A DNA stretch of 64,000 nucleotides, from positions 3,328,001 to 3,392,000 of the forward strand of contig CAVOFT010000001.1 in NCBI GenBank assembly GCA_963695095.1, read 5' to 3'. Made by a program: the position numbers and the translations under genes. The stretch comes from an uncultured bacterium. GTDB lineage: Bacteria > Krumholzibacteriota > Krumholzibacteriia > JACNKJ01. The notes beneath the pieces are model-generated. The model did no database searches. It was not told where the DNA came from and saw only the letters and a program-made list of their open reading frames with translations. This document shows, piece after piece, positions 4,442-19,114 of the stretch. Positions within the stretch are counted from its first letter, which is position 1; each line of letters begins with the position of its first letter.

Positions 4442-5200
4442 TCATCGGAGGGCCTTGACCGCCAGGAAGACGAGGCGCCTGGCGTCGAGTTCGAAGGGCG
4501 CGCCCTCGTAATCGCCGAAGGCGCGGCAGTCGCCCAGGTTCTCGGCCTCGGCGAGGGCGCACAGCTCGCGCAGCGTGTAGAGCCGGATGCTGCTCCTGGC
4601 GCGCCGGCGCCGGCCGCCCTCCTTCGGGAAGAGGGTCCAATCCGTTTCCACGCGCCCCGCCAGCGCGTCGTAGCGGGTCTGGTTGGTGAGGATGACGCCG
4701 CCGCGCTCGCTCCACTGCTGGCGCGCGAAGCTGGGGAAGATCGTCTCCGGGCTGTGCAGGTCCATGGCAAGGACGCCGCCCGGCTTGAGCGCCCGGGCGA
4801 GCGCGCGCAGCTGGCGGCGATTGCCCTCTTCGTCGAAGTAGCCGAAGCTGCCCCACCAGCACAGCGCGAGATCGAAGCGTTCGCGCCAGCGGACGCGCCG
4901 CATGTCACCCTCCACCCAGTCCAGCTCGAGCCCCTCGGCCCGCGCCTTGCGCCGGCCGGCGGCGAGCAGGGCGGGCGTGGCGTCGAGCCCGGTCACCCGG
5001 TAGCCGCGGCGCGCGAACTCGCGGCCCAGGCGACCGTCCCCGCAGGGCGCGTCCAGCACGCGCAGGGGCGGCCGCAGGTCGAGCACGGCCTCGAGCAGGT
5101 CCACCGCGGGGCGGACCAGGGCCGGCTCGTCCATGGCCAGCTGGTAGCGCAGCCAGGGGCCGCTGAAGAAACGCTCCCACCACTCGCGCCGCTGGGCCAT
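4442..5200 (-). CDS. Class I SAM-dependent methyltransferase
   Basis: Motif I VLDAPCGDGR, VTGLD, EGDMR, SFGYFD, LKPGG. Start overlaps the GNAT stop (TGATG). Confidence 0.9.
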   Translation of the reverse strand: MAQRREWWERFFSGPWLRYQLAMDEPALVRPAVDLLEAVLDLRPPLRVLDAPCGDGRLGREFARRGYRVTGLDATPALLAAGRRKARAEGLELDWVEGDMRRVRWRERFDLALCWWGSFGYFDEEGNRRQLRALARALKPGGVLAMDLHSPETIFPSFARQQWSERGGVILTNQTRYDALAGRVETDWTLFPKEGGRRRRARSSIRLYTLRELCALAEAENLGDCRAFGDYEGAPFELDARRLVFLAVKALR

Positions 5201-5631
5201 CAGTCCTCCCTGAACACCTTGCTCACGCAGAACAGCTCGCTGCGCCCATGGTAGCCGAGGGCTTCGTAGAAGCCGAGCACGGAGCGGTTGGTCTCGAGCA
5301 CGGTGAAGGTGATCTTCACGACGCCCTCGCGCCGCCAGACGGCCTCGAGCGCCTCCATCAGCGCGCGGCCCAGCCCCTCGCCCTGGCGCTCGGGCGCCAC
5401 GGCCAGGTGCCAGAGATTGGCCCGGCGGCCGTCGAAGGTGCCCAGCGCGGCCCCCGCCAGGGCGCCGGCAGCATCCCAGGCGCCCAGGCAGGTCTCCGGG
5501 TTGCGGGCCAGGACGCGCGCCAGTTCGTCGAGACGATCGCTGGTGCCGAGCTCGATCCCCGCCCGCGCCCAGAGCGCGACGGCGGCCGGCAGGTCCGCGG
5601 CGGCCAGGGGCCGAATGCACAGGCCGCTCAC
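5200..5631 (-). CDS. GNAT family N-acetyltransferase
   Basis: LAVAPERQGEGLGRALM acetyl-CoA motif; N...LGFYEALGY. Confidence 0.9.
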   Translation of the reverse strand: MSGLCIRPLAAADLPAAVALWARAGIELGTSDRLDELARVLARNPETCLGAWDAAGALAGAALGTFDGRRANLWHLAVAPERQGEGLGRALMEALEAVWRREGVVKITFTVLETNRSVLGFYEALGYHGRSELFCVSKVFRED

Positions 5632-6938
5632 GGCGCCTCGCCCCGCTGCTCGCGCCGCCAGGCGAGGAACTCGCGGATGCGGGCCTCGTGGCCGTGGCCG
5701 CTCGGCTCGTAGTAGCGCCGCGCGCCGATATCCTCGGGGAAGTGGTCCTGGCGCAGGCCGCCCGCGCTGTCGTCGGGCGCGTAGACGTAGCCGTCCCCGT
5801 AGCCCAGCTCCTTCATCAGTCGCGTGGGCGCGTTGCGCAGGTGCAGGGGCACGGGGGCGTCGGGCAGGGCCTCCACGTCCGCGGCCGCGGCCTTGATCGC
5901 CGTGTAGACGCGGTTGCTCTTGGGCGCCGTGGCCAGGTAGAGCACGGTCTGCGCCACCGCGGTGTCGCCCTCGGGCAGGCCCAGGAAGTGCACGGCCTGC
6001 ATGCCGGCCACGGCGAGCTGCAGCGCGCGCGGGTCGGCGTTGCCCACGTCCTCGCTGGCGAAGCGCACGAGGCGGCGCATCAGGTAGAGCGGATCCTCGC
6101 CGCTGGCCAGCATGCGCGCCGCCCAGTAGAGCGAGGCGTCGGGGTCCGAGTCGCGCAGGCTCTTGTGCAGGGCGCTGATCAGGTTGTAGTGCTCCTCGCC
6201 CGCCTTGTCGTAGCGGTGGCTGCGCCGGCGCATCAGCTCGGCGGCGGCGGCCACCTCAAGTTGCGGCGGATCGCCCGCAAGGCTCGCCGCCAGCATCTCC
6301 AGCGAGTTGAGCGCCACGCGCGCGTCGCCGTTGCTGGCGCCGGCGATGAGCGCAAGGGCGCCCGGCTCGGCGACGACCCCCTGCGCGCCGAGGCCGCGCT
6401 CCGGGTCGGACAGCGCGCGCTCGAGCAGAACCAGGATGTCCTCCTCGTCCAGCGCCTGCAGGGTGAAGACCCGGCTGCGGCTGAGCAGCGCGCTGTTGAC
6501 CTCGAAGCTCGGATTCTCGGTGGTGGCACCGACGAGGATGATCGTTCCGTCCTCGACATGGGGCAGGAAGGCATCCTGCTGGGCCCTGTTGAAGCGGTGG
6601 ATCTCGTCGACGAAGAGCAGGGTGCGCCGGCCGCTGAGGGCCTGGCGGTCCCGGGCCGCGGCGACGATGGCGCGCACCTCCTTGACGCCGGAGGTGACGG
6701 CGCTGAAGGTGGCGAACTCCGCCGCGACGATGCCCGCCAGGATGCGCGCCAGGGTGGTCTTGCCCGTGCCCGGCGGTCCCCACAGGATGAGCGAGCTGGA
6801 CAGGGCCCCGCTCTCCAGGTAGCGGCGCAGGGGCTTGCCCTCGCCGAGGAGCTGGCGCTGGCCGAGGAATTCGTCCAGATCGCGGGGCCGCATGCGCTCG
6901 GCCAGAGGGGCCGGCGCCTTGCTCGCGAAGAGGTCCAT
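5628..6938 (-). CDS. rarA: Replication-associated recombination protein A (RarA/MgsA)
   Basis: PLAERMRP, Walker A GPPGTGKT, FVDEIHRFNRAQQDAFLP, GATTENPSF, ISALHKSLR.SD, ASEDVGNADP. Confidence 0.97.
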   Translation of the reverse strand: MDLFASKAPAPLAERMRPRDLDEFLGQRQLLGEGKPLRRYLESGALSSSLILWGPPGTGKTTLARILAGIVAAEFATFSAVTSGVKEVRAIVAAARDRQALSGRRTLLFVDEIHRFNRAQQDAFLPHVEDGTIILVGATTENPSFEVNSALLSRSRVFTLQALDEEDILVLLERALSDPERGLGAQGVVAEPGALALIAGASNGDARVALNSLEMLAASLAGDPPQLEVAAAAELMRRRSHRYDKAGEEHYNLISALHKSLRDSDPDASLYWAARMLASGEDPLYLMRRLVRFASEDVGNADPRALQLAVAGMQAVHFLGLPEGDTAVAQTVLYLATAPKSNRVYTAIKAAAADVEALPDAPVPLHLRNAPTRLMKELGYGDGYVYAPDDSAGGLRQDHFPEDIGARRYYEPSGHGHEARIREFLAWRREQRGEAP

Positions 6939-6986
6939 GCGGCCAGGATACCAGGGCGGGGCCCCGGGCACCAGGGCCTCCCCGGC

Positions 6987-8405
6987 TCAGCGCACCCGGA
7001 AATCCGCCGGCCGCAGACCCAGCTTCTTCAGCAGCCGGTAGATGGTCTGCCGGGGCAGGCTCGCCAGGCGCGCCACTTCCGTGATGTTGCCGCGGGCGGC
7101 GCGCAGCAGCATGGTGAAGTACTCGCGCTGGAATCGCAGCTCGGCAGCGGCCTTCGCCTGCTTGTAGGAAAAGCCGGCGTAGGTTTCCGGAGCGATGAGC
7201 TGGAAGTCCGAGGCGGCCAGGGTCCCGTCGCGCTGGCGGATGAGCGCATTCTCGATCACGGTGCCCAGCTCGCGCACGTTGCCCGTCCAGGGCTGGCGCT
7301 GGAGCAGGCGCAGGGCCTCGATCTCGAGCGCCGGCACCGGGCGCTTCATCTCCCTCGCCTTGAGGGCGATCAGATGGTGGGCGAGCGGCTCGATGTCCTC
7401 GACGCGCTCGCGCAGAGGAGGCAGGTGCAGGCGCAGACCCAGCTGGAGCAGCAGGGGCTGCAGGAGGCGCCGCTCGCGCACTTCCCGCACGGGATCGCGA
7501 CTGCTGCCGGCGACGATCCTGGCTCGCAAGGGAATCTCCTGCCGGCTGCCCAGGGGGCGGAAGCGGCGCTCGGTGAGCATCCGGCTCAGCTTGTGCTGCA
7601 CTTCCAGGCTCAGCTCGGCGATCCCATCGAGGTAGACGAGCCCCTGCCCCGCTTCCTGGAGGCGGCCGACGCGGCGGCGATGAGCGTCGGCGAAGGCGCC
7701 CTGCTCGTGGCCGAAGAGCTCGCTCTCCAGGAGCGTCGGCGAAAAGGCGGCGCAGTTGATCGCCAGGAAGGGCTCGCTGGAATGCGCCCCGAGGGCATGC
7801 AGGGCGCGCGCACAGAGCTCCTTGCCCGTGCCGCTCTCACCGGTGACCAGCGCCGGCCGATCGCAGGAGGCAAGGCGCCGGATCTCCTCGCGCACGCGGA
7901 CGATGGCCGGGCTGTTGCCCAGCAGCTCCACCGCAGCGCCCTCGCCCGGCGCCTGAATGCGGATGCGCCCGCGGCGCAGCTCCAGGGCCGTGCGCAGGAT
8001 CAGCTTGAGCTCCTCCTCGCTCCAGGTCTTGGAGATGTAGTTGACGGCGCCCAGGCGCATGGCGCGCACGACGTTTCTCGGCTCGATGTGTTCCGAGATG
8101 ATGATCACCGGGATCTCGGGGTAATTGATCTGTAGATCTTCCAGGAGGTCGAACCCGGCCAGGAAGCGATCGAACTGCAGGTCGAGCAGGATCACCTCGA
8201 CGCTGTGCCCCAGGAGGTACTGCTGGGCTTGGCCGGGGCTGGCCACGTAGTCCAGCTCGTAGTCGCTGTCGAGCGCCATGTGCATGTCCGTCAGGAAGGG
8301 CTCGGGGACATCGTCTACCAGGAGAATGCGCGCCTTGGCGGCATCGGCGCCGTCGGCGATTCTCAGCGCGGTGCCATGGACGCTGTCGCCGGGCTCGAGC
8401 CCCAT
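6987..8405 (-). CDS. NtrC-family response regulator (REC-AAA+-Fis HTH) with degenerate sigma54-activation motifs
   Basis: REC (LLVDD, LLDL, YISK), Walker A GESGTGKE, ESELFGHE, PPLRER, GNVREL and C-terminal HTH are present. GAFTGA reads GAFADA and Walker B reads LDGI. GGAGG RBS before ATG 8405. Confidence 0.92.
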   Translation of the reverse strand: MGLEPGDSVHGTALRIADGADAAKARILLVDDVPEPFLTDMHMALDSDYELDYVASPGQAQQYLLGHSVEVILLDLQFDRFLAGFDLLEDLQINYPEIPVIIISEHIEPRNVVRAMRLGAVNYISKTWSEEELKLILRTALELRRGRIRIQAPGEGAAVELLGNSPAIVRVREEIRRLASCDRPALVTGESGTGKELCARALHALGAHSSEPFLAINCAAFSPTLLESELFGHEQGAFADAHRRRVGRLQEAGQGLVYLDGIAELSLEVQHKLSRMLTERRFRPLGSRQEIPLRARIVAGSSRDPVREVRERRLLQPLLLQLGLRLHLPPLRERVEDIEPLAHHLIALKAREMKRPVPALEIEALRLLQRQPWTGNVRELGTVIENALIRQRDGTLAASDFQLIAPETYAGFSYKQAKAAAELRFQREYFTMLLRAARGNITEVARLASLPRQTIYRLLKKLGLRPADFRVR

Positions 8406-8406
8406 C

Positions 8407-8661
8407 TCAGCGACCTCCCCGCCGGTTCGCGCGCTGGCGCTTGCCCTTGGGCCCCAGCTCCGGATAGAGGGGGATGATGGGGGCCAGTCGACTCTCGACG
8501 CCGACCGCTTCATGGGAAAGCGCCGCGATCCCCGCCCGCAGGAAGCAGCGCACCCAGCGATTGAGGGTGCGCGACGGCAGTCGCCGGGCCTGGGCCAGCG
8601 CGGGAATTTCCGCCCCGCGGAGAACTTCGAGAACGAGCTCGGCCTTGTCATTGAGTGTCAT
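8407..8661 (-). CDS. Small HTH protein (DUF1153/SciP-like or transposase-type HTH)
   Basis: KAELVLEVLRG...ALAQ...TLNRWVRCFLRAGIAAL. G-rich RBS. Its stop is one base from the regulator start. Confidence 0.65.
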   Translation of the reverse strand: MTLNDKAELVLEVLRGAEIPALAQARRLPSRTLNRWVRCFLRAGIAALSHEAVGVESRLAPIIPLYPELGPKGKRQRANRRGGR

Positions 8662-8888
8662 GTTGATCCCCCCATTGGCCCGGCCCGGGCGGGATCGCAC
8701 ACGCGGCCAGCGTTTCTTCAACATCGGTGTGACACTGGAGTAGAAACCCCTTCGTCGAGCCTTGCTGGGATTGTCTCAATTAGACTAGGCCCTCCTGCCT
8801 GGGTGCTCAAGCCGGTAGCTAGTTCCGTACACAGAAAGGTGACACTCCTCGGGAGGAAGAATCACAGCGGAGGGAAGATTCTTGGAAG

Positions 8889-11800
8889 TTATTCCAGATT
8901 ACCCAGAAGGCGCAGGTGCAGCTGGAAACGGGCGCCGCCGAGGCTGCCCGGTCCGGGCAGGCAGGCAATCCGACCGCCGAAGCCGACGACCAGCTTGCGG
9001 GCGATCACCAGGCCGTCTCCCCCCAGGGGGACCTTGCTGCTTTCCCAGGGCTCGAAGATCCGCGCGAGCCTGCCGGGCGCGACGCCGGGACCGCTGTCCT
9101 CGAAGAGAAGGCGGAGCTGGTCGCCCTGCACTTCGGCCAGCAAGTGGAGGCGACGGGACGCGCCGGCGCTCATTGCCTCGAGCGCATTGGCAATGAGATT
9201 CTCGAAGACGATCGTGAGCTGCGCCGGCTCGAAGAACACCGGGGGCGCCTGTCCACCGAGGATGGAGAGGCTGAGTTCATCCAGTGGCGGCTCGGCCTGC
9301 AGGCAGCGTGCCAGGGCCGTCTGGAAGCAGGCCACCGGGTCCGCGCCCAGCCGCTCCGCCAGCCTCGCCTCGAGCCCACAAAGCCGGGGACCCAGGCGCT
9401 CCAGCTCCCGCGCCAGCCGGAGCCAGTCTTTCGGCCGCAGCTCCGTGCCGCTGGGCGCCAGCAGCGCTCGCAAGCTGCCGCGGCCACGGGGCTCGAGCTC
9501 TGCAGGCCAGGCTGCGTCCAGGGCTGCCAGGGGAGCGCGCAGGGCTGCCAGGTCGGCGGCGGCACGGCGGCTCGCTTCCGTTCCGCCGCGTGCGGCGAGC
9601 AGGCAGGCCTCGCGCAGGGCGCTGAAGCGCTCCCGCCTCCCCTCGCGGCAGCGCAGATCCTGCAGCAGCCCGAGCAGGAGGGCTCGGGGCTGCCAGGGCC
9701 CGATATCGGGCTCGCCCCGGCGCCGCCACCAGTAGCGTGGCCAGGGTAGCGCCAGGCCGAGCGCGAGGCCGAGAAGGGCCCCGAGACCCGGCCAGACGAA
9801 CCAATCCCGATCGCAGACGCCATGGCCCGAGCCCGGCGCGATCCGGAGCAGGAGCAGCTGGCCCATGCCGAGCAGGGCGACGCCGGACTTCCGCTGGCCG
9901 GGGGAGCAGAGCGCCAGCTCCCGGATGTCACGGGCACCGCCGGGACTCTCGTGCAGGCGCGCGCGCAGCACGAAGTGCCGATCCAGCAGCAGCAGGTCGT
10001 CGGGCAGGACGACCAGCAACTGGCTCGGGCCGTCCGCGATGAAATCCGCCGTGTGCAGGGCGAGCGGCCGCCCCGGCAGGGACCAACGGCCGCGTTCCTG
10101 GAGACGGCGGTCGTAGGCGATGAGCTCGCCCTCCCCGGCGCCGAAGCCGCCGGTCGCCAGCACGAACTCGTCGCTGCCGTCGCCGTCCAGATCGAGAACG
10201 GCCACATCCTGACAGGGCCAGGGCGGCTCGATCACCAAGGTCGGCGAGCCGTCCGCGGGACGATACTCCAGCCGTGTGTTCCCGGCCTGCCCTGACTGCA
10301 GGACCCTGAGCTCGCCCAGGACATGCTTGGCGACTTGCCTGAGCACGTGCCGCCGTAGACTCGAGCCAGGTTGGCCGCAGGCCTCGCCGCGCAGCACGCG
10401 GCCTTCGCCATCCAGATCGAGACACCAGCTCGTGCCGGCCGCCTGCAGACCCGGTGGCGGCCGCGGTCCCGCGCTCGCGGCCACGGAGACCAGCAGTTCG
10501 AGCTGTCCATCGGCGTCCAGATCGGCGAGGCCCTCCAGATGGGCGGGGCCGGAGAGATCGCGCTGCCACAGGATCCCCCGCGCCGGCGAGTAGGCGAGGA
10601 GGCCGCCAGGCGGGTCCAGGCCCGCCTGCGTGTAGGCGAACAAGAAGCCCTCGTCCTCCGGCAACGCGAGCATCTGATTGAAGCGCGGCGCCGGAAAGCC
10701 GGCAGCCGGCCGGGCGGCCGCGGGCAGCGCCAGCAGGCGTTCCGTTCCCGCCGCCTGCGTTGGGGATGCCAGCCGGAGCCTATGCAGCTCGAGAGCGTCG
10801 TCGGCCCAGCGGCTGAGCAGGATCTGCCTCCGCCCGCTGCCGTCCAGGTCCGCTGCGCCCAGGAGGCTCCAGCTGCCGGCACTGGCCAGGGGGATCGACT
10901 CGGACCCAGCCCGCCCTTGCGCCCTTTGCAGCAGCAGCCAGCTTGCCGAAGACGACTCGCTGTGGAGCAGGAGAGCGGCATTGTCCGCACTATCTCCCTC
11001 CAGGTCCGCGCAGAGCAGGTGGGCCGTCGCCGCCTCGAAGGTGATCGACTCCTGCACGCGGAAGTGATGCGTGGTCGGACCTCTCGGCTCAGTGCTGCCG
11101 GCGGGCCGAGCGGCAGCCAGAAGCGCCATCAGCGCGAGCAGGCCGGCCACTGCGCTGCGGGTTCTCGCGGTGGGCCTGCCCTCGTCCCGCATGGGCAGTC
11201 GCAGTCGCAGGGCATCGCCTTCCCGCCGAGCGTCGGCGAGCTCCGATTGCCGCTCGCTGAAGGCTGCCCAGCGCGCCGCCGTCGCCTCGCTGTCACTGCC
11301 GCCCGGCGTTTCGGCACTGAGCTGGAGGACATCCCGCTCTACAGCGAGACAGAGCCGCAGCGACACCCCGCCTTCCCGCGGAATGCGGGTCAAGCCGATC
11401 TCCACGAGGCCGCTGATCGCGTCTGCGAATTCTGCGAATCTCAGATTGAGACGACGCTGCGCGAGGTCGCCGGTCAATCGGAGCTCGAAAGGGACCCCGG
11501 CGGCGGCGGTCAGTCCCTGGAGCGTGGGCAGCAGCTGCAGCAGCTGGTCGAGCACCGGCTTCTGCGCCCGCAAGCGGACGCGCTCGGCGAGCGCCCGCGA
11601 GCATTGGCTCAAGTCCTGACAGCGATCTTGCAGTTCTGCGCCCTGCTCGATGGCGACTGCCCGCGGGTCCCCATCGGCTCGAAGCCGTCCCAGCGCCTCC
11701 CGCAGTGCGCTGGCGCCGGCGAGCACCCTCTCCGCTTCCGGGTCGTCGCCGAGAATGCGGCCTGCCAGCGGCGCCAGCTTGAGCAGTTCGCCCAGCGTCT

Positions 11801-13604
11801 CCTGCACCTCGGCCGCGGTGCCCAGCAGGTTCCTCCGGCGTTCGGCGGTGTCCTGATCCCGCAGGTGACCCACGCGCTTGGCCAGGCTGGGTAGCCGCGC
11901 GGAGAGACTGCCGCCATGGGCGAACAGGCGCAGACCCTCATCCAGCTCCTGCCACAGCGCCTCCTCCTGCTCGGGAGTCGGCAGCGCACTCGAGGCGGAG
12001 TCGCCCCAGCCGCCAGGCCGCAAGCTCCGCTGCTGCCGGCGCAGAAGCAGGACCAGCCAGAGGATCGCCAGCGCCGCAGCGGCGAGGAGGCCAATGAGCA
12101 GGCCGCGCAGGCGGCCCCATCCTGACTTCGGCTCCGTCCCTGTGACCGGGCTCGGTCCGGCAAAATCGGGATTGGGCTCGAGCCGCAGCATCCCGACCTG
12201 CTGCGGAGCCAGGCCGGCGACCGCGAGGCGCGGAATCCCGTCCCCGCCCCGCCAGCAGCGCAGCTGGATAAGGGGATTCACCAAGCGCTCCGTCAGGCCG
12301 CTTGGCCACAGGGCCAGCGGCACGAGCGCCCGGTCGCAGACCAGCAGGTCATCGCCGACGCGCAGGACGAGTTCCGGCCAGGTATCGCCGGTCAGGTCGG
12401 CTGCGCAGAGGGGCTGGACGGAAGGCGCGAACCACCAGCGCGCGCGCTCCTCGAGCCGGCTGTCGAGGAGAAGCAGGCTGCCGTCGGCCAGCCCGATCAG
12501 GACGTCCTCCGCGCCGTCGCCATCCAGATCCGCCACCAGGGGCGGGCCGGTCAGGCCACCTGGCAGCGGCCGCGCCCGCACCAGGAGCCCCGCGGCGTCG
12601 TAGAGGCGCAGCTCGTCAGCCTGGGAGCGGCTCAGGCTCGCCAGCACCAGGGGCAGCGCCTGCGCGCTCGGACGCAGGGGTTGCGTGGCGGCGAGGGTGG
12701 CGAACGCGCCCGCCTGCACGTTCAGCCGATCGCGGCCCGTCAAGTCGATCACCCGCCAGTAGGAATGGTCATCGCTGCCGCGCGCACAGGAGTCGCCATT
12801 GCCGCTGGCGTAGCTGGACAGGAAGAGCTCGCGCTGGGAGTCCCCATCCAGGTCGGCAAGATGATAGCCGAAGGTGTTGTTGGGCAGGCGGATCTGCGTG
12901 CGCAACACTCCCTGCAGGTCGTAGACCAGGAGCCCGCGCGGCGCGCTCCGCCAGTTGAAGCCCGCCATGGTCTGGACAAGGATGCGGCCCTCCGGGGCCA
13001 GGATCCGGCCCTCGAGATGGCTGCGCGGCAAGTGCTCGTGGCCCGAGCCCTCATGTCCCACCGCGATGTCGGCAAGCACGAGCAGCGTGTCGCACTGCAC
13101 CGTTCCCGTAGCGCCCCGCCGCAGGCGCTCTAGCCAGAAGCCCAGGCGCCGGTGCTCGCTGTCGTAGTGCCAGAACAGCAGCTCTTCGGCACCGTCCCCG
13201 TCCAGATCGCCACCGCCGGCCAGGCCGCCCTGATAGAGGGGAAAGTTCCACTGCCAGATCGGATTCTGGGGAGCCGCGAGTTCGAAGAGGAGGACGCTGC
13301 TCAGCCCTTCGCCCAGGGGTTCACGGCCGCTGGCCAGGAACTCGGGCGTCGCGTCGCCCAGGAGCTGGGCCAGCCGGAACTCCGTGGCGGCGAAGGAGCC
13401 CTCCTTGGCCAGGCGCCAGGGCAGGGTGGCGGGAGCCGGCAGGGCGTTGCGAGGCCTGTCATCGCCGACCGCCGAGTTCCCCCGGTGGGCCGGCAGGAAC
13501 AGGAGCAGGCAGAGGCAGGCCGACAGCAGGGGCCGGCGAGGCGGCGTCGTCCGCAGCATGGCGCCCCATTCGATGGGTGACCCATCGAGTCTATCAGCTT
13601 TCAT
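8889..13604 (-). CDS. Tandem double sensor: FG-GAP propeller-TM-degenerate kinase-like region, fused to a second FG-GAP propeller-TM-HATPase
   Basis: Multiple D(L)DGDG..E FG-GAP motifs and three internal hydrophobic segments. C-terminal HATPase boxes ENLIANALEA, EDSGPG, IFEP, GGDGL. Start could instead be ATG 13559. Confidence 0.85.
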   Translation of the reverse strand: MKADRLDGSPIEWGAMLRTTPPRRPLLSACLCLLLFLPAHRGNSAVGDDRPRNALPAPATLPWRLAKEGSFAATEFRLAQLLGDATPEFLASGREPLGEGLSSVLLFELAAPQNPIWQWNFPLYQGGLAGGGDLDGDGAEELLFWHYDSEHRRLGFWLERLRRGATGTVQCDTLLVLADIAVGHEGSGHEHLPRSHLEGRILAPEGRILVQTMAGFNWRSAPRGLLVYDLQGVLRTQIRLPNNTFGYHLADLDGDSQRELFLSSYASGNGDSCARGSDDHSYWRVIDLTGRDRLNVQAGAFATLAATQPLRPSAQALPLVLASLSRSQADELRLYDAAGLLVRARPLPGGLTGPPLVADLDGDGAEDVLIGLADGSLLLLDSRLEERARWWFAPSVQPLCAADLTGDTWPELVLRVGDDLLVCDRALVPLALWPSGLTERLVNPLIQLRCWRGGDGIPRLAVAGLAPQQVGMLRLEPNPDFAGPSPVTGTEPKSGWGRLRGLLIGLLAAAALAILWLVLLLRRQQRSLRPGGWGDSASSALPTPEQEEALWQELDEGLRLFAHGGSLSARLPSLAKRVGHLRDQDTAERRRNLLGTAAEVQETLGELLKLAPLAGRILGDDPEAERVLAGASALREALGRLRADGDPRAVAIEQGAELQDRCQDLSQCSRALAERVRLRAQKPVLDQLLQLLPTLQGLTAAAGVPFELRLTGDLAQRRLNLRFAEFADAISGLVEIGLTRIPREGGVSLRLCLAVERDVLQLSAETPGGSDSEATAARWAAFSERQSELADARREGDALRLRLPMRDEGRPTARTRSAVAGLLALMALLAAARPAGSTEPRGPTTHHFRVQESITFEAATAHLLCADLEGDSADNAALLLHSESSSASWLLLQRAQGRAGSESIPLASAGSWSLLGAADLDGSGRRQILLSRWADDALELHRLRLASPTQAAGTERLLALPAAARPAAGFPAPRFNQMLALPEDEGFLFAYTQAGLDPPGGLLAYSPARGILWQRDLSGPAHLEGLADLDADGQLELLVSVAASAGPRPPPGLQAAGTSWCLDLDGEGRVLRGEACGQPGSSLRRHVLRQVAKHVLGELRVLQSGQAGNTRLEYRPADGSPTLVIEPPWPCQDVAVLDLDGDGSDEFVLATGGFGAGEGELIAYDRRLQERGRWSLPGRPLALHTADFIADGPSQLLVVLPDDLLLLDRHFVLRARLHESPGGARDIRELALCSPGQRKSGVALLGMGQLLLLRIAPGSGHGVCDRDWFVWPGLGALLGLALGLALPWPRYWWRRRGEPDIGPWQPRALLLGLLQDLRCREGRRERFSALREACLLAARGGTEASRRAAADLAALRAPLAALDAAWPAELEPRGRGSLRALLAPSGTELRPKDWLRLARELERLGPRLCGLEARLAERLGADPVACFQTALARCLQAEPPLDELSLSILGGQAPPVFFEPAQLTIVFENLIANALEAMSAGASRRLHLLAEVQGDQLRLLFEDSGPGVAPGRLARIFEPWESSKVPLGGDGLVIARKLVVGFGGRIACLPGPGSLGGARFQLHLRLLGNLE

Positions 13605-13637
13605 CTTTAGGAGATAGCGCTAATTCGAGGATCATCA

Positions 13638-15968
13638 TCATGAATCAGAGGCGGCGACCTGCCGCGAGCGCTCCGGCCCTTCGGCGAGGATGAACGCCAG
13701 CTGCACGCCGCCGTCCTGGCAGCGCAGGCCGCAGTGCAGGCGCGCGGCCGCCGCCGCGATGCCGAGCCGCTCCAGGTCGGCCGCGCCCGGAGCCGATCCT
13801 GCCAAATCGTCCCGGCAAGCGACCAGGAGCTGCGTGGGCTCGCGCCGCGCCTGCAGCAGGAGCACTCCCGCTCCGCCGCGGGCGCGCTGCCGGAAGAGTT
13901 GCCCGAGCAGGACGAAGAGCTGATCGGCCTCATCCGGATTGGCGACTGGCGCCTCGTCCCGCCAGTCGCCGGCGAGATCGAGGCGAAGCGAGAGTCCAAC
14001 GGCGGCGAAGCGGGTGAGCAGGAGGCCGATGAAAGCAGCGGGCGGGACGGCGAGTCGCGCGTCAACCTGCAGGTGCAGGGCCTCGATTCCGGCGCTGATC
14101 GCCCGCGCCGCCCGTTCCGCGGCGGCCAGCTCGTTGGCAGGCGGCAAGCGGTCGGGAGCGAGAACAGAGGCGAGCTGCGCGAGCCGCTCGGCGTCCGCCT
14201 GGAAGGCCCGGCAGCGCAGCTTGTCCCAGGCTCCGGCCGCGGCCAGGTCGCCGATCTGCCGCAGGATGGGCAGCGTCTGCAACCGAAAGGCCGCCGCCGC
14301 CGCCCGCAGGCGGGGGAAATAGCGCGCCGCCGTGTCCCGCTCCCCCTGGCTGTTGCGCAGGGCGAAGATCAGGCTGTCGAGCTGGCCACGGGCGGCGGCA
14401 CTATGGCGAAAGCCACGGAGCTGGTCGCGCAGCGGGCGCCAGCACTCCGCCGCCGTCGCCGCGCCGGCCGCGGACCCTCCCCGCTTCAGCCAGAGCGACC
14501 CTGCGAGCGAACCGATGGCCAGGCCTGCGACAGCTGCGATGAGCGCCAGAAGCCAGCGCGCCGGCTCGCCCCGCGCTTGCGCGGCCGCCCCCGGCAGCAG
14601 CTCGAGCAGCAGCGAAGCCCCCGGCTGACCGCGACTCATGGCGACGAAGCGCCGACCCTCCGCGCTGACCCAGCCGGTCGCTTGCTGAGGCAGCTGATGC
14701 GAGTAGAGCAACTCGCCGTCCCAGAGCGCCAGCGGCGCCAGCGTCTGGTCGAAGAGGCCGAGCCGATTGCCGACCGCGATCAGGAGATCCGGCCGGCCAC
14801 GGCCGCGCAGATCCACCGCCGCCAGTGGGCCCACCGCGGCCGCGAAGCGCCAGTCGGCGAGCAACTGCAGATCGCGATCGAGGAGCAGCAAGCGGCCGTC
14901 CGTGAGGCCGAGCAGCAATTCATCGCTGCCATCGCGGTCCCAGTCGACGACCAGACTGCGCCAGAGGGCCGCCGGCAGGCTACGCTCGCGCAGGAGGCGA
15001 CCGTCCGCGGCGTAGATGCGCAGGGGACAGTGCTCACCCTCGCCGAGCAGCAGCGCCGCAATGGCGGGGGCCTGCCCCGCGATGCGCATGGGCTGGGTCT
15101 GGGCCTCGCTGAAGGCGCCGCCCGCTTCGACGTCAAGCAGGCGGCGGGCGTCGGCATCGATCACCCGCCAGTAGGAGTGGCAGTCGTCCTCGCCGGGCAG
15201 CCTCTGGCCGTTGCAGGTGGCATGCGTGCCGAGGAAGAGCTCCGGCCGGCCGTCGCCGTCGAGGTCGGCCAGCGCCGTGATGTAGACATTCGGGGCGGCG
15301 GCGGCGTGCCGGCGCAGACGACCCTGCGCATCGAGCAGGAGCGGGCCGCGGGGCGCCAGGCCAAAGCCCGCGACAGGCAGGGCGACCCAGAGATCCGCCG
15401 CCGCATCGAGCCGCCCCGACCCGTGCATCTGCGGGGCGAACTCGGCGCCGGCGCCGGCAGTCGGCACTGGAATCGCCTCGCTGCGCCAGAGCGTCTCGGT
15501 CCGCAATCCACCGGGGCCGAGGCGCAGGGCGTCCGCCCGGAGCCGGAAGCCGCCTTCGTCGCGGATCCAGAAGAGCAGCTCTTGGCGTCCGTCGCCGGCC
15601 AGCAGATCCGCCGTGCCGGCCAGGCCGCCCTGGCCGGCGACGAAGTTCCATTGCTTGAGAGGACGCGACACCGAGCCCTCCAGCCGCGAAGCCAGCACGA
15701 AGCTGTGGCTGAGCGTATCGGGGCCTGCCCCGCAGGTGACGAGCTCCGGTGCGCCGTCGCCATCGAGATCGAGGACGAAGAGCTCACTCCCCCGCAGGGC
15801 CAGGCAGGTCTCCAGGGTCAAGGGCAGGGAATCCCGCGCGGGCAGCCCGACGGGCAGGGGCGCCGGCTCGCTGGTCACCCTGTGCGGCACGAGCGCGAGC
15901 AGGAGCAGGGCGACGCCCAAGCGGCGGACAACAGCGCAGCGCCTGCCATTGGGGATCCGGGTGCGCAT
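13638..15968 (-). CDS. FG-GAP beta-propeller membrane sensor with degenerate histidine-kinase-like cytoplasmic region
   Basis: GGAGGG RBS before ATG 15968, signal peptide, DLDGDG repeats, TM WLLALIAAVAGLAIGSLAGSLWL. Paralogous to the modules in 8889-13604 (shared D.HSYWRVID). Confidence 0.85.
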   Translation of the reverse strand: MRTRIPNGRRCAVVRRLGVALLLLALVPHRVTSEPAPLPVGLPARDSLPLTLETCLALRGSELFVLDLDGDGAPELVTCGAGPDTLSHSFVLASRLEGSVSRPLKQWNFVAGQGGLAGTADLLAGDGRQELLFWIRDEGGFRLRADALRLGPGGLRTETLWRSEAIPVPTAGAGAEFAPQMHGSGRLDAAADLWVALPVAGFGLAPRGPLLLDAQGRLRRHAAAAPNVYITALADLDGDGRPELFLGTHATCNGQRLPGEDDCHSYWRVIDADARRLLDVEAGGAFSEAQTQPMRIAGQAPAIAALLLGEGEHCPLRIYAADGRLLRERSLPAALWRSLVVDWDRDGSDELLLGLTDGRLLLLDRDLQLLADWRFAAAVGPLAAVDLRGRGRPDLLIAVGNRLGLFDQTLAPLALWDGELLYSHQLPQQATGWVSAEGRRFVAMSRGQPGASLLLELLPGAAAQARGEPARWLLALIAAVAGLAIGSLAGSLWLKRGGSAAGAATAAECWRPLRDQLRGFRHSAAARGQLDSLIFALRNSQGERDTAARYFPRLRAAAAAFRLQTLPILRQIGDLAAAGAWDKLRCRAFQADAERLAQLASVLAPDRLPPANELAAAERAARAISAGIEALHLQVDARLAVPPAAFIGLLLTRFAAVGLSLRLDLAGDWRDEAPVANPDEADQLFVLLGQLFRQRARGGAGVLLLQARREPTQLLVACRDDLAGSAPGAADLERLGIAAAAARLHCGLRCQDGGVQLAFILAEGPERSRQVAASDS

Positions 15969-16043
15969 GACCCTCCGGGGACGGAATCTACATATAAGGA
16001 GGATAGCGCGATTTGGCCGCGGGGGCGGCATGCAGGACGGGAA

Positions 16044-16063
16044 CTGTCGCCCTGTTGCGACAG
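16044..16063. promoter_or_regulatory. Candidate operator, inverted repeat CTGTCGC-N6-GCGACAG
   Basis: Perfect 7-bp arms, ~75 bp upstream of the sensor operon start. Confidence 0.45.
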
Positions 16064-16091
16064 CTGCTCGCGCGAACGCGCAGCGTCCCTG

Positions 16092-17945
16092 CTACTTGAG
16101 CAAGAGCAGCTTCTGGCGGCCGAGATCGCGGTCGTCCAGCCGCAGGCGGGCGAAGTAGACGCCGCTGGCGACGCGGGCGCCGCGGCTGTCGCGGCCGTCC
16201 CAGCGGGCGAAGCCCGGGCCGGCGGGCAGCGCCTCGTCGAGCAGCGTGCGCAGCGCCCGCCCCTGGGCGTCGAGGATCTCCAGCCTGACGCGGCCGCCTG
16301 CGTTCAACTCGTAGCGCAGTCGCGTGCTCGGATTGAAGGGATTGGGGTGCGGCGCGAGCAGACGCCCCGCCCCAGCGTCCGGGAGCTCAGGCGCGGCGGT
16401 CCAGCCGAAGCCGGCGTCGCTGATCACCTGCCCGAGATAGGGACCCTGGGCAAGCGGCGCCGTGGGCGGCTGCGGATCCTCGCCCGAGCGAATGTACTCC
16501 TCGATGCTGTCAACGGCGATATGGCCCCAGCTCTGGCTGCTGAGGTCCGCGATGACGAGGAAGACGGTCTGCCCCGCGAGGCTGGAGAGGTTCCACAGCC
16601 GCGGCGTGAGGACATGGCTGTCCATGCCCGTCTCCGAGAAGAGGATGCGCTCGTCGCTGGCGCGCACCAAGGCCACGAAGGTGAGGGCGGGCTTGTTGCC
16701 GCCGCCGACGAGCAGCTTCATGCGATCGCCGCTCACGGTGAAGTCGTCGCTGCGGATCAGGCCGGTGGGCACATTGCCCTGGATGCGACCGGGCGGATAG
16801 ATGTCCGGGTCGTGGAAGAACTCATAGGTGGCGACATAGCTGTTGCCTTGCATCCCCGTGGGCACGCCGTTGCGCTCGTAGGGATTGTCGCCCCAGGTCG
16901 GCTGGAAGTTGAAGGCGGTGCCGAAGACGGTCGTCCAGTTGTCGGCGAAGCCTTCGTGGTAGCTGATCGTGGGCTCGCCCCCGGGCTCATCGAAGCTCAC
17001 ATCCCCGAAGCGGAAGAAGAAGCGGGTGCCGTCGCGCAGCTCAAGGCCGCGATGCAGACTCCAGAGGTCGGGCTCGCCGGGAATGCTCGTGATCTCGTTG
17101 GCATGGCCTTCGTCGATGTAGGTGCGATTGGCCTTGGACCAGGCGCCGGTGAAGCTGGGACTGGCGATGTGGCTGATCTGCTGCTCGCCCCCTTCCGTGA
17201 AGAACAGGTGGTAGTAGCCCCCGCGCTTCACGAGCTGCACGCTTTCGAGAACATTCCTGCTATCGTTGACGAAGAAGGCGCCGAGGTCCGTCCAGGGGCC
17301 CAGGTTGTTGCTGATGGCATGGCTGATGCCGCCCATGCTGTCCGGCGCGACGCTGACCGAGTTGAGCAGATACCACTGGGAACTGCCGTCTTCGTGGAAG
17401 AGCTCCGGATCGCGGCAGTTGGACCACTGGCCCGGGCTCCAGATCGCCCAGCTGCCGGGGCGGTACAGCGGGTTGCCCGCCCAGCGATACCAGTGGAAGA
17501 GATCGTAGGACGAGGCGAGGCCCGTTTGCTGCGTCAGGCCCCAGTTGGAGCCCGTGTAGTACATCAGCCAGTCGCCGCTGTTGGGATCGTCGATGATCTT
17601 CGGCGCCCAGACGAACTCCGACTCCCAGGCCGGCGGATTGGGGATGTCGACGGATAGGACGCTGTCCTGGCGCGTCCAGTGCCTGAGGTCGGGGCTCGTG
17701 ATGTGCCCGAACCACTGCTCCTTGCGCAGGTAGTGGCCGTCGGGCGGCAGGCTCTGGATGTAGAACACGTGATAGATGCCGTTGTGCTTGACCACCGCGT
17801 GGTCCTTGCACTGGATGCCCATCGTCTCGAAGAAGAAGGGGCGCTCGAAGTCGGCGAGCAGGAGGGCATCGGCTGCGGAAGTCCGAAGCATGAGAACGGC
17901 AAGGGCCCCTAGGAGAACCCGCGCGGCCATGGGGAAACGTGGCAT
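16092..17945 (-). CDS. Secreted GH32/GH-J-like five-bladed beta-propeller + accessory beta-sandwich + FlgD-Ig/T9SS-like CTD
   Basis: KDHAVVKHNGIYHVFY, HITSPDLRHW, VWAP, NCRDP (RDP motif), VLES; PNPFNP CTD. Confidence 0.85.
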   Translation of the reverse strand: MPRFPMAARVLLGALAVLMLRTSAADALLLADFERPFFFETMGIQCKDHAVVKHNGIYHVFYIQSLPPDGHYLRKEQWFGHITSPDLRHWTRQDSVLSVDIPNPPAWESEFVWAPKIIDDPNSGDWLMYYTGSNWGLTQQTGLASSYDLFHWYRWAGNPLYRPGSWAIWSPGQWSNCRDPELFHEDGSSQWYLLNSVSVAPDSMGGISHAISNNLGPWTDLGAFFVNDSRNVLESVQLVKRGGYYHLFFTEGGEQQISHIASPSFTGAWSKANRTYIDEGHANEITSIPGEPDLWSLHRGLELRDGTRFFFRFGDVSFDEPGGEPTISYHEGFADNWTTVFGTAFNFQPTWGDNPYERNGVPTGMQGNSYVATYEFFHDPDIYPPGRIQGNVPTGLIRSDDFTVSGDRMKLLVGGGNKPALTFVALVRASDERILFSETGMDSHVLTPRLWNLSSLAGQTVFLVIADLSSQSWGHIAVDSIEEYIRSGEDPQPPTAPLAQGPYLGQVISDAGFGWTAAPELPDAGAGRLLAPHPNPFNPSTRLRYELNAGGRVRLEILDAQGRALRTLLDEALPAGPGFARWDGRDSRGARVASGVYFARLRLDDRDLGRQKLLLLK

Positions 17946-17968
17946 CGCTCACCTCACGAGAGGCCACT

Positions 17969-17977
17969 ATTCTAGCA
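17969..17977 (-). promoter_or_regulatory. Extended -10 element TGCTAGAAT
   Basis: TGnTAnnnT about 24 bp upstream of ATG 17945; no well-spaced -35. Confidence 0.4.
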
Positions 17978-18064
17978 GATCCGGCGGCGGGGCGGGGGCG
18001 CAAATGCACGGGTGATCGGGGTCCGAAACGATGCGAAATCAGGAGCTTGTCCTGGAAACGGCGC

Positions 18065-19114
18065 TCAACCGACGGCGTCGCTCTCCCGCTCCCTGGCCTG
18101 CTGGGCAAGCACGCCGAAGGCTTCGGCGCGGCGCGGGTCCTGGCGCTCGGCATAGATGCGGCTGAGCAGGGCATACACCTGGGCCAGATCCCCCTTGCCC
18201 TCGGGAAGGCGCGCGAGCTGCTGCTCGGCGGCACTGAGCTCCCCCATTCCCACCAGCAGCTCGGCCCGACCCAGCGCGGCGCGCGCATAGCTCGGGTTCA
18301 GCTCCAGCGCCTTGCCGAGCTGCAGCAGCGACGCCTCGCGATGCTCGCTCTCCTGGAGCAGGCGGGCGAGATCGTAGCGCAGGTCCGGCCAGTCCGGCTG
18401 CAGGGCCACGGCGCGCTCGAGCAGCGTCACCGCCGCCGCCAGCTCACCCCGTCGATCCCGCTCGGCCGCCAGCTCGCGCAGGAGCTCGATGGACTGCGGC
18501 CAGCGTTGGCAACCGCGTTCGAGCAGATCGCAGGCCGCCTTCGCCTCGCCCGCTCGCCGCTCCCAGCGAGCGCGGTAGAGCCAGTGCCGATCGGGCTGCC
18601 GTCCGCAGAGGGCGGCCCAGGCATAGAGCCGGCGACCAGCTTCCGCCTCGGCGCGATAGCTGAAGAACTCGCCCATGGCCGCGAAGAGGCGGCGGAAGGC
18701 TGGACAGAGCAGCGCCCGCCGCGCTGCCGGCGCTTCGCTCGCCAGAGGCGCCACGGTGGCGAGCAGGGCTTCTCCTTCTTCTGCGCCCACTGAGAAAGCC
18801 TGGCGCAGCTCCTCGGCCACGGCCTCGGCGGCCGGCGGCGGAGCGCTCGGGCGCAGCCCGCCCTGGGCGGCGAGCCAGGTTTCCCAGAGCTGCCGATCCG
18901 CGAAGCCGGCCGCCTGCGCGGCCAGACTCGCTCGGGCCTCGGCGGCCGCGGCGAGGAGGGTATCGGCTGTCGGGGGATCGCTCTCGATCAGCAGCTGCCC
19001 GCGCAGCAGCGAGTAGAGACCCCACTCGAGCGTGAGATCCGGGTAGGGCGGGTGCTGCTCGCGCCGCCACCGGTAATAGGGTTCGATGCGCTCGAGGAGG
19101 GCGATCCAGTCCAT
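18065..19114 (-). CDS. Tetratricopeptide-repeat protein
   Basis: C-terminal TPRs (LERAVALQPDWPDLRYDLA, KALELNPSYARA); 6 bp downstream of glpX. Confidence 0.8.
   Translation of the reverse strand: MDWIALLERIEPYYRWRREQHPPYPDLTLEWGLYSLLRGQLLIESDPPTADTLLAAAAEARASLAAQAAGFADRQLWETWLAAQGGLRPSAPPPAAEAVAEELRQAFSVGAEEGEALLATVAPLASEAPAARRALLCPAFRRLFAAMGEFFSYRAEAEAGRRLYAWAALCGRQPDRHWLYRARWERRAGEAKAACDLLERGCQRWPQSIELLRELAAERDRRGELAAAVTLLERAVALQPDWPDLRYDLARLLQESEHREASLLQLGKALELNPSYARAALGRAELLVGMGELSAAEQQLARLPEGKGDLAQVYALLSRIYAERQDPRRAEAFGVLAQQARERESDAVG

Follow-up and report, generated by a model that had tools for sequence, protein, structure and literature searches.

Analysis of a 64,000-nucleotide stretch of DNA from an uncultured bacterium of the phylum Krumholzibacteriota (contig CAVOFT010000001.1, positions 3,328,001 to 3,392,000; hereafter, the window) revealed two adjacent genes, A and B, that encode three paralogous propeller-containing receptor modules, each of which has lost one or the other part of a histidine kinase. 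Gene A (13638..15968, minus strand; 776 amino acids (aa)) encodes one such module, and gene B (8889..13604, minus strand; 1571 aa) is a fusion of two, B1 and B2. From the distribution of the lost and retained motifs, we lean toward the interpretation that A and B jointly constitute a subfunctionalized 'split' transmembrane histidine kinase that is made up of three paralogous propeller receptors and in which B2 would phosphorylate A and/or B1 in trans. Downstream of B, on the same strand, are a gene for a small helix-turn-helix (HTH) protein and a gene for an atypical NtrC-like response regulator, the candidate recipient of the signal.

Each of the three modules comprises an extracytoplasmic propeller, a membrane helix, a helical bundle and a kinase-like alpha/beta tail. 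This layout had been proposed in an earlier note on this DNA, made by reading the sequence, and is borne out by the paralogy detected with BLASTP, by Pfam matches to FG-GAP_3 and by the positions of hydrophobic segments. The same note had spread the three modules over four genes; the modules stand, and the genes turn out to be two open reading frames, A and B. In A, a signal peptide or anchor is followed by the propeller (approximately residues 46-470), a membrane helix (473-489), a bundle that bears a conserved histidine, and a tail resembling the catalytic and ATP-binding (CA) domain of histidine kinases. B1 (residues 1-810 of B; 11175..13604, minus strand) consists of a propeller, a membrane helix (502-518), a histidine-bearing bundle and a truncated CA-like tail. 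B2 (residues 811-1571; 8889..11174, minus strand) opens with a hydrophobic segment that is the predicted re-entry membrane helix (residues ~816-832) and continues with its own propeller, a membrane helix (1270-1286), a shortened bundle and a HATPase_c domain. The hydrophobic segments of B, at 26-42, 502-518, 816-832 and 1270-1286, fit an out-in-out-in topology in which the first propeller would lie outside, followed by a cytoplasmic part, a return to the outside, the second propeller and the second cytoplasmic part. The likely true start of B is Met16 at position 13559, the second Met of the frame, which yields a protein of 1556 aa; the database record of B, P0007, begins at this residue. The propellers of A and B1 are 41% identical (BLASTP E 4e-55), and those of A and B2 (E 6e-8) and of B1 and B2 (E 8e-11) are more distantly similar; the cytoplasmic parts of the three modules are too diverged for BLASTP. 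In Pfam, FG-GAP_3 (PF13517) scores 36.5 bits in A and 58.5 bits in B (cut-off 26.9), and FG-GAP (PF01839) scores 23.8 and 24.2 bits, respectively (cut-off 22.1). DxDGDG-type motifs are found at residues 88, 256 and 363 of A and at residues 133, 251, 359, 1028 and 1138 of B (numbering of the open reading frames). With FG-GAP repeats and DxDxDG loops, A and B are predicted FG-GAP/VCBS beta-propeller proteins.

The case for a split kinase is carried by the partitioning of the signature motifs among these modules. The kinase family to which they belong (see below) has a near-invariant histidine that we propose to be the phosphoacceptor. This residue is present in A as His522 (codon 14403..14405, minus strand), which is kept in four of the four A-type sequences, and in the same alignment column of B1 as His563 (codon 11916..11918, minus strand), which is kept in five of the five fused orthologs. 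In B2, the column is occupied by Cys1319 (codon 9648..9650, minus strand), the orthologs carry Cys, Leu or Arg, and there is no histidine between the last membrane helix and the N box. The only Pfam match to HATPase_c (PF02518) lies at the C-terminus of B (residues 1461-1566; 8907..9224, minus strand; E 5.4e-12, 46.6 bits, cut-off 26.4), where the N box FENLIANA, the G1 box EDSGPGV and the G2 box GGDGL are all in place. Neither A nor B1 yields such a match: in the degenerate CA-like tail of A (approximately residues 640-776; 13641..14051, minus strand), the N, G1 and G2 columns are not kept, and B1 similarly retains the histidine without these boxes.

The pattern stands out when the motif states are read from 53 aligned modules taken from fetched loci and the window. 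The N, G1 and G2 boxes are missing in exactly three of these modules, namely, A, B1 and the product of g1, the first gene of a pair in genome G003, which represents the same family as the window's genome and a different genus. The histidine is likewise missing in exactly three modules, which are B2, the product of the second gene of the same pair, g2, and an outlier, L022, in which a canonical HisKA-type H-box is found at another place in the protein. The G003 genes overlap by 4 bases; the g1 product (807 aa) has no HATPase_c match, and the g2 product (831 aa) has one with E 1e-10. Within the clade that includes A, B and the G003 pair, no module combines the histidine with the ATP-binding boxes and none lacks both. 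At the level of motifs, the phosphoacceptor and ATP-binding functions appear to reside on separate modules, none of which would be self-sufficient, and this is the arrangement expected of a split kinase. The statement of the earlier note that no module is a complete canonical kinase is accordingly correct as far as it goes and imprecise in what is lost: in B2, the HATPase_c domain is complete and only the histidine is gone, and in A and B1, the histidine is kept and the boxes are gone. The hetero-oligomeric receptor proposed in that note gains from this complementarity, because modules that have lost complementary parts are predicted to depend on one another.

The three modules derive from kinases that are typically complete. 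We searched 208 genomes of the phylum, all from one class, with A as a single query and obtained matches at E <= 1e-5 in eight. One was to G003 g1 (E 5.1e-46), and six further matches (E 1e-13 to 1.1e-6) were to single kinase genes whose products (770-913 aa) combine a propeller with HATPase_c; in four of the six cases, the very next gene encodes a regulator with the domain architecture receiver (REC)-Sigma54_activat-HTH_8. A as a single query also retrieved three full-length orthologs (P0002-P0004, 64-68% identity) and two distant proteins, one of which is an annotated histidine kinase with HisKA and HATPase_c. A profile built from 13 family members (A2) has A, B1 and B2 among its rows, so that its matches to these modules are circular. 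It gave best E-values of 1e-60 or lower in 67 of the 208 genomes, and in a library of 1.84 billion protein representatives it matched 1328 at E <= 1e-30; this number is an upper bound, given that long FG-GAP proteins with multiple repeats are picked up as well. The best 150 of these 1328 representatives are almost all 700-900 aa long and matched over nearly the full length. An NtrC-type regulator gene directly follows the family kinase on the same strand in 16 of 48 assessable cases, two further fetched kinases at contig ends having been left out. Judging by these relationships, A, B1 and B2 belong, as derived forms, to a large and uncurated family of propeller histidine kinases in this phylum.

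The near-invariant positions in the cytoplasmic part of the family are a histidine about 30 residues past the membrane helix, the Asn of the N box, G1 (DxGxG) and G2 (GxG). The histidine occurs in 140 of 145 aligned top representatives, in 139 of them together with N, G1 and G2. This histidine is the most conserved position of the entire helical region (98% of 143 sequences). The exceptions are the G003-type proteins P0017 and P0019, two truncated entries, and the histidine-less P0048 (772 aa) and P0138 (1062 aa). The last two, which do not belong to the A/B/G003 group, carry Leu and Gly, respectively, in the histidine column and have an intact CA domain. In other genomes of the phylum, complete family kinases occur as tandem or fused pairs, both copies retaining the histidine and the CA motifs (L058:7032-11968, L059:5198-10113, L060:4038-9933 and L061:4783-8816), and such pairs are likely to be the raw material for the split. 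The window's own genome has a second family kinase outside the window (L065:6796-9243, plus strand; 815 aa), in which the histidine and the boxes N, G1 and G2 are all preserved. The gene after it encodes a GAF-SpoIIE (PP2C-type phosphatase) protein of 830 aa (L065:9412-11904, plus strand), not a response regulator; the two genes map to G000:C1 ~3511795-3516903.

The histidine-bearing region does not belong to a recognized phosphoacceptor family. Pfam searches with A, B and six complete relatives detected no match to HisKA, HisKA_2, HisKA_3 or Hpt at E <= 0.001, and six isolated helical regions searched at E <= 10 gave only chance-level Pfam matches, so that an H-box of the canonical dimerization and histidine phosphotransfer (DHp) type was not identified. 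NCBIfam yielded nothing above the curated cut-offs; the models matched were those for the CA domain and generic NtrC-type models, and none was found that represents the propeller kinase family. In Protein Atlas, the top feature scores for the helical region of a complete relative were 0.83 (HEF_HK, HisKA and HisKA_2), under the 0.9 level of a lead. The family histidine is located approximately 170 profile positions ahead of the N box, whereas the usual spacing in kinases is 100-120 positions. In the literature on FG-GAP sensor kinases, we found no published description of the family; PMC3147164 was considered and rejected, as the FG-GAP protein there is the product of a neighboring gene only.

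The B1-B2 fusion recurs in five sequences (P0008-P0012) of 1518-1553 aa, with 41-60% identity to B and 96-99% coverage. In all five, the B1 part keeps the histidine and the B2 part keeps FENLI(A/G/T)NA, EDSGxG and GxGL, with Cys, Leu or Arg in the histidine column; the three A orthologs also keep the histidine. The degenerate CA-like tails are 53-65% (A) and 35-58% (B1) identical to those of the orthologs, with zero to two gaps, and this identity equals or exceeds that of the neighboring helical regions. The propellers are the best-conserved parts of A and B1 (56-74% identity); the B2 propeller, with 32-60% identity, falls below the B2 CA domain (54-66%). The comparison of these sequences indicates that the degenerate state is maintained and is not decay. 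In a phylogenetic tree of 63 rows, built with a quick method from the propeller and helical columns with the histidine region and the CA part excluded, A, B1 and B2 fall among the family members, and all 16 degenerate modules belong to one clade (SH-aLRT support 99). The A and B1 clades are joined by G003 g1 (support 82 and 93); the B2-type rows form a clade (100), and one branch of the best tree (66.7) separates these rows and G003 g2 from the rest. The sequence composition is skewed and the root is arbitrary, and the tree topology fits a scenario in which a single split preceded the divergence of the two genera, the histidine-bearing copy was subsequently duplicated, and B1 was joined to B2.

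Structure models are compatible with this derivation. The AF2 model of the cytoplasmic part of A (48 sequences, pLDDT 83.9, pTM 0.79) contains a predicted up-down helical bundle (fragment residues 5-144) in which the histidine (fragment residue 27) is placed at the break between the first two helices. The alpha/beta domain that follows the bundle superposes on the CA domains of kinases (VIA Z 10-11, root mean square deviation (rmsd) 2.8-3.0, ~120 residues), and Foldseek assigns a probability of 1.00 to its similarity to ZraS, CpxA and DesK, so that, in the model, the tail of A appears to retain the CA fold despite the loss of the ATP-binding boxes. The matches of the bundle itself, at a level regarded as unspecific for helical bundles, are to FAT domains, designed four-helix bundles and the P1 domain of CheA (Z 9.7-11; for CheA P1, 1tqg, Z 9.7, rmsd 3.1, 104 aligned residues). 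The model of the cytoplasmic part of B2 (pLDDT 83.8) has a shorter and less confident bundle and a complete CA domain. Complex prediction for the cytoplasmic parts of A and B2, run without controls, returned a score of 0.00 against a mark of 0.32 and weighs neither way.

The regulator gene (6987..8405, minus strand; 472 aa) encodes a REC-AAA+-HTH protein with Pfam matches to Sigma54_activat (PF00158, E 4.7e-48) and Response_reg (PF00072, E 3.8e-15) and a Fis-type HTH just below the 22-bit cut-off (HTH_8, PF02954, E 2.6e-4, 21.1 bits). The receiver keeps the acidic pair, Asp75 and Lys126, and the AAA+ domain keeps the Walker A motif GESGTGKE, with GAFADA in place of GAFTGA, YLDGI in place of FLDEI (Walker B DG), LLQPLLLQL in place of the arginine-finger motif FRxDLYYR, and sensor I also lost. 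Given the loss of GAFTGA, of the Walker B Asp-Glu and of the arginine fingers, the protein, by its sequence, is not a working sigma-54 activator, as the earlier note had predicted when describing a sigma-54-independent regulator without activation motifs; a sigma-54 gene is present in the same genome. The window protein and 12 relatives with 52-79% identity form a clade (alignment A6), beyond which the next matches drop to 38% or less. The Thr of GAFTGA is lost in all 13 members (GAFADA, GAFAEA, GAFDAA, GAYEGA and similar forms), Walker B reads DG in eight, DE in four and EE in one, the arginine-finger motif is kept in one of the 13 (P0173), and Walker A and sensor II (GN[VIA]RE) are retained in the clade. 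Even so, conservation in the regulator is highest in the AAA+ domain (62-87% identity within the clade, compared with 35-65% for the receiver), which argues that this 'dead' domain still performs some function, most likely nucleotide binding or oligomerization.

The 84-aa HTH gene (8407..8661, minus strand) looks like a real gene because its product matches HTH_28 (26.1 bits, cut-off 25, E 8.9e-6) and HTH_23 (E 1.4e-4) in Pfam, its G+C content by codon position (0.75/0.53/0.79) is coding-like, and it has a syntenic homolog in genome G002, which belongs to the same genus as the window's genome; the earlier note had recognized this protein correctly. Among the 208 genomes, four have matches at E <= 0.001, of which only the one in G002 is syntenic. 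The HTH stop codon lies 1 base ahead of the ATG of the regulator, so that the gene appears to be translationally coupled to the latter, and it is to be grouped with the regulator, not with the kinases. A role as a co-regulator or DNA-binding partner is a guess.

Pairing of the kinases with the regulator appears fairly probable. At the locus, the genes are adjacent and co-oriented. Among metagenomic relatives, kinase and regulator orthologs occur on same-sized contigs of 22851 bases (P0002, P0008, P0162), 269238 bases (P0003, P0011, P0164) and 15681 bases (P0012, P0165). In G002, the gene order is tetratricopeptide repeat (TPR) protein, glycoside hydrolase (GH; 63% identity over 617 aa), HTH (37%), regulator (51%) and MgsA, with the GH gene directly preceding the HTH and regulator genes; given this synteny without the kinases, A and B amount to a 7.6-kb presence/absence difference. 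The G002 regulator (L084:12166-13560, plus strand) has Glu in place of the receiver Asp and Leu in place of the conserved Lys, its receiver is the most diverged of the clade (35% identity), and the GAFTGA-less AAA+ domain is retained. To judge from these substitutions, it may be a phosphorylation-independent derivative.

These observations suggest the following scenario. The ancestor would have been a single-chain kinase with a periplasmic FG-GAP propeller, a membrane helix, a bundle with one histidine and a GHKL catalytic domain. Once this kinase gene was duplicated, one of the copies (B2; g2 in G003) would have kept ATP binding and lost the histidine, and the other (g1 in G003, duplicated again into A and B1 in the lineage of the window) would have kept the histidine and lost the ATP-binding boxes; B1 would then have been fused to B2 via an extra membrane helix, giving rise to a single-chain pseudo-heterodimer. 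If the family histidine is the phosphoacceptor, the catalytic domain of B2 would phosphorylate the histidine of B1, to which it is covalently joined, and/or that of A, which would join the complex as a second substrate or sensor. The phosphate would then pass to Asp75 of the neighboring NtrC-like regulator. Given its predicted inability to engage sigma-54 or to hydrolyze ATP, this regulator would be an atypical sigma-70-type activator or a repressor, perhaps acting together with the small HTH protein. In the laboratory, a kinase without its histidine and one without catalytic activity can complement each other intermolecularly, as classically demonstrated with EnvZ. Under this scheme, three propellers would gate one catalytic site. 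Tentatively, one can go further and envisage an obligate kinase with three sensors and one catalytic site, in which two pseudokinase receptors, one free and the other covalently fused to the catalytic receptor, offer their histidines to the histidine-less module, the three propellers compute a single output, and the bundle is a new phosphoacceptor module. As for the signal, the neighboring GH32/43-like enzyme and weak propeller similarities to a carrageenase (A and B of the window) and to a rhamnogalacturonan lyase (one relative, L027) hint at a glycan, which is speculation; nothing found supports the surface or contact sensing suggested in the earlier note.

Several observations count against the split-kinase interpretation or against the pairing with the regulator. 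The evidence for phosphorylation of the family histidine is that of sequence, and this histidine is off the canonical DHp position, in a helical module for which no Pfam family is found even at E <= 10. In a profile search of PDB, the H-box of ZraS aligns some 60 positions downstream of the family histidine, where there is no conserved histidine. The fold matches of the bundle fall within the Z range deemed unspecific for helical bundles, and we therefore make no Hpt or DHp assignment. The two G003 rows are on long branches of the quickly built tree, and no family member was found with the queries used in two same-genus genomes, G002 (98% complete) and G001 (95% complete). The unusual position of the histidine, in a module without a Pfam match, also suits an alternative in which A and B1 are non-phosphorylated pseudokinase co-receptors that modulate B2, the histidine has a structural or other role, and B2 uses another acceptor or only hydrolyzes ATP; heteromeric kinases with a purely regulatory partner are on record (RetS/GacS, as mentioned in PMC12675982). 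We consider this alternative unlikely. Within the helical region, no polar residue other than the histidine is strongly conserved; the histidine is conserved jointly with N, G1 and G2, as in kinases, and it is lost exactly where the catalytic domain is kept and kept in 11 of the 11 histidine-type modules without a catalytic domain. Such a pattern of loss is not predicted by a structural role, and given that no cytoplasmic histidine of B2 is conserved among the orthologs, B2 has no acceptor of its own. Decay of duplicated kinase genes without a joint function would account for two modules without catalytic motifs, a third without the histidine, and the failure to find the cassette in the two same-genus genomes. 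This we regard as very improbable and reject: the frames are open and, as the earlier note had remarked, long and intact; the same architecture and the same losses recur in three A-type and five B-type orthologs down to 41% identity; the degenerate tails are conserved like the other cytoplasmic parts and are nearly gap-free; and the G+C content at third codon positions of A and B (0.85-0.86) is the same as in neighboring genes. The earlier note had allowed that the cassette might not be conserved, that the degenerate modules might evolve neutrally and that the orthologs might be ordinary complete kinases paired with canonical NtrC. As it turned out, the cassette is conserved in metagenomic relatives and was not found in G002 and G001 with the queries used; the degenerate parts, with their protein identity and few gaps, do not evolve as neutral sequence would; and close orthologs share the degenerate state, with complete kinases and NtrC-type partners found among the distant homologs.

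Another possibility is that A and B are not partners of the regulator at all, the signal going to another response regulator and the HTH-regulator pair being an independent, conserved orphan unit beside mgsA. The regulator gene (with the HTH gene in G002) indeed keeps its place by mgsA in G002, G008 and G003, where no kinase gene adjoins it, and the g1-g2 pair of G003 is on another contig with no regulator alongside, so that the pairing is not obligatory. In the window, B is separated from the HTH gene by 228 bases with a low G+C content of 58%, which makes a separate transcription unit possible, and the window's genome, G000, encodes many NtrC-like proteins (17 matches at E <= 1e-40). Furthermore, the co-location in metagenomic relatives is deduced from equal contig sizes alone, and the Asp-to-Glu change in G002 is a single case. 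We nonetheless find the orphan-unit alternative doubtful, in view of the NtrC-type regulators directly following 16 of the 48 family kinases and the three cases of same-sized contigs. Moreover, G002, the only genome seen with a syntenic regulator and no family kinase, is the one in which the receiver Asp and Lys are lost, whereas G003, which has g1-g2, keeps both, as does G008.

A, B, the HTH gene and the regulator gene are part of a run of six co-oriented minus-strand genes between 5628 and 17945, in a region with 64-76% G+C over the first 24 kb of the window. The first gene of the run (16092..17945, minus strand), upstream of A and syntenic in G002, encodes a GH32/GH43-like secreted protein with an FlgD_ig-type C-terminal domain, and the last (5628..6971, minus strand), 15 bases downstream of the regulator gene, encodes an MgsA-type AAA+ ATPase and, as noted, keeps this adjacency in G002, G008 and G003. 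The distance between A and B is 33 bases, or 78 when counted from the second Met of B. The G+C content dips to 0.64, against ~0.72 in the surroundings, at 8001-9000, which takes in the interval between B and the HTH gene, the latter gene itself and the beginning of the regulator gene, and at 17001-18000, in the 5' part of the GH gene. A scan of positions 6800-16300 found no promoter-like site and one terminator-like site, which is on the opposite strand and below the shuffle expectation. Downstream of mgsA, the frame 4442-5620 (minus strand) reads, in translation, as a putative class I S-adenosylmethionine-dependent methyltransferase; open reading frames with a similar N-terminus also come after mgsA in G008 and G003, so that the synteny of the block consisting of the regulator gene, mgsA and this frame extends across the family. 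The frame 18065-19114 (minus strand), located upstream of the GH gene, encodes a 349-aa protein with the N-terminus MDWIALLERIEPYYRWRREQHPPYPDL, apparently TPR-like, that has close counterparts at the equivalent place in G002, G008 and G003. A pattern search of genome contigs for close relatives produced 135 matches, none of which was confirmed, and a metagenome scan with the generic pattern DLDGDG gave, among the matches listed, eight weak loci (24-34% identity) and no orthologous contig.

If the proposed interpretation is correct, the locus represents a natural, conserved split among transmembrane receptor kinases, in which each partner has its own sensor and the lost domains persist as pseudo-domains. 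Extant genomes would then display the evolutionary intermediates, from single genes and tandem pairs that are still complete, through the split pair of G003, to the three split modules of the window, two of them fused. Such a system would lend itself to the study of sensor interdependence, of the integration of multiple inputs at one catalytic site and of the switch-like response considered for split kinases in PMC3591291. Should the bundle prove to be a new phosphoacceptor module, neither a HisKA-type DHp of Pfam nor a recognized Hpt, it would be present in a family of up to ~1300 clusters at 50% identity. More generally, the analysis flags an uncurated family of putative kinases with the histidine outside the canonical H-box and a conserved clade of NtrC-like regulators that lack GAFTGA and are predicted to be ATPase-dead.

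The earlier note had presented the locus as an undescribed system. It is better described as a lineage-specific offshoot of a kinase family in which 139 of the 145 aligned representatives are complete and many have an NtrC-type partner. Split or heterodimeric kinases and GAFTGA-less enhancer-binding proteins are, moreover, already in print, and a wholly new system is rejected, given that the modules fall within this kinase family. A, B1 and B2 share the order of parts with that family and match its profile over nearly the full length; the difference is that the normal members, counted as 139 of the 145 aligned representatives and 50 of the 53 modules from the loci and the window, are single and complete, whereas the modules of the window have lost either the CA motifs or the histidine. 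Outside the family, the cytoplasmic part is best matched, in both sequence and fold, by kinases of the NtrB/ZraS/AtoS type (for ZraS, 9jfj, profile E 1.3e-26 and Foldseek E 5.7e-6), which also pair with NtrC-type regulators. Unlike these kinases, the proteins described here have no HisKA H-box, the conserved histidine lies some 170 positions ahead of the N box, and the sensor is a propeller. The regulator, for its part, is by its sequence a member of the class of atypical enhancer-binding proteins that includes VpsR, TyrR, HupR, HsfA, PhhR, NtrX and NtrC of R. capsulatus and Caulobacter, which are reported to act at sigma-70 promoters (PMC6158489; bioRxiv 10.1101/2023.06.06.543975). It shares with them the REC-AAA+-HTH layout, the lack of GAFTGA and a non-consensus Walker B motif, and differs in forming its own clade of 13 sequences, in the additional loss of the arginine-finger motif and in the small HTH gene located just ahead.

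Among heteromeric kinases, the closest parallels are CheA3/CheA4 and FasB/FasC. CheA3/CheA4 of Rhodobacter sphaeroides is presented in PMC3591291 as the biochemically characterized split kinase; natural split kinases are said there to be rare, 1556 of 42417 HisKA proteins are given as split-kinase candidates for want of a HATPase domain, and switch-like behavior is modeled. As in that case, ATP catalysis and the acceptor histidine would here reside on different proteins, neither sufficient alone, with one response regulator. Unlike the modules of the window, CheA3 and CheA4, as described there, are soluble chemotaxis kinases without sensor domains, each simply missing the domain of the other. 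Here, the parts are full transmembrane receptors with propellers of their own, the lost domain survives in the form of a conserved pseudo-domain, the histidine is borne by two modules, one of which is fused to the catalytic module, and trans-phosphorylation is what we infer from the sequences. FasB and FasC of group A Streptococcus are reported to heterodimerize, FasC being a proposed pseudokinase with a required histidine (PMC12675982). Together with FasA, they resemble the system described here in that the paralogous membrane proteins are kinase-like, the kinase domain is supplied by the other partner and there is one response regulator. In the same account, they represent a different kinase family, with a ComE-like regulator, without propellers and without a fusion, and the catalytic partner still holds candidate histidines, whereas B2 has none. 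Compared with the known split kinases, the features that appear to be new are that the parts are full receptors, that the lost domains remain as pseudo-domains, that there are two putative histidine donors, one of them fused to the catalytic module, and that the histidine-bearing module lies outside the curated families.

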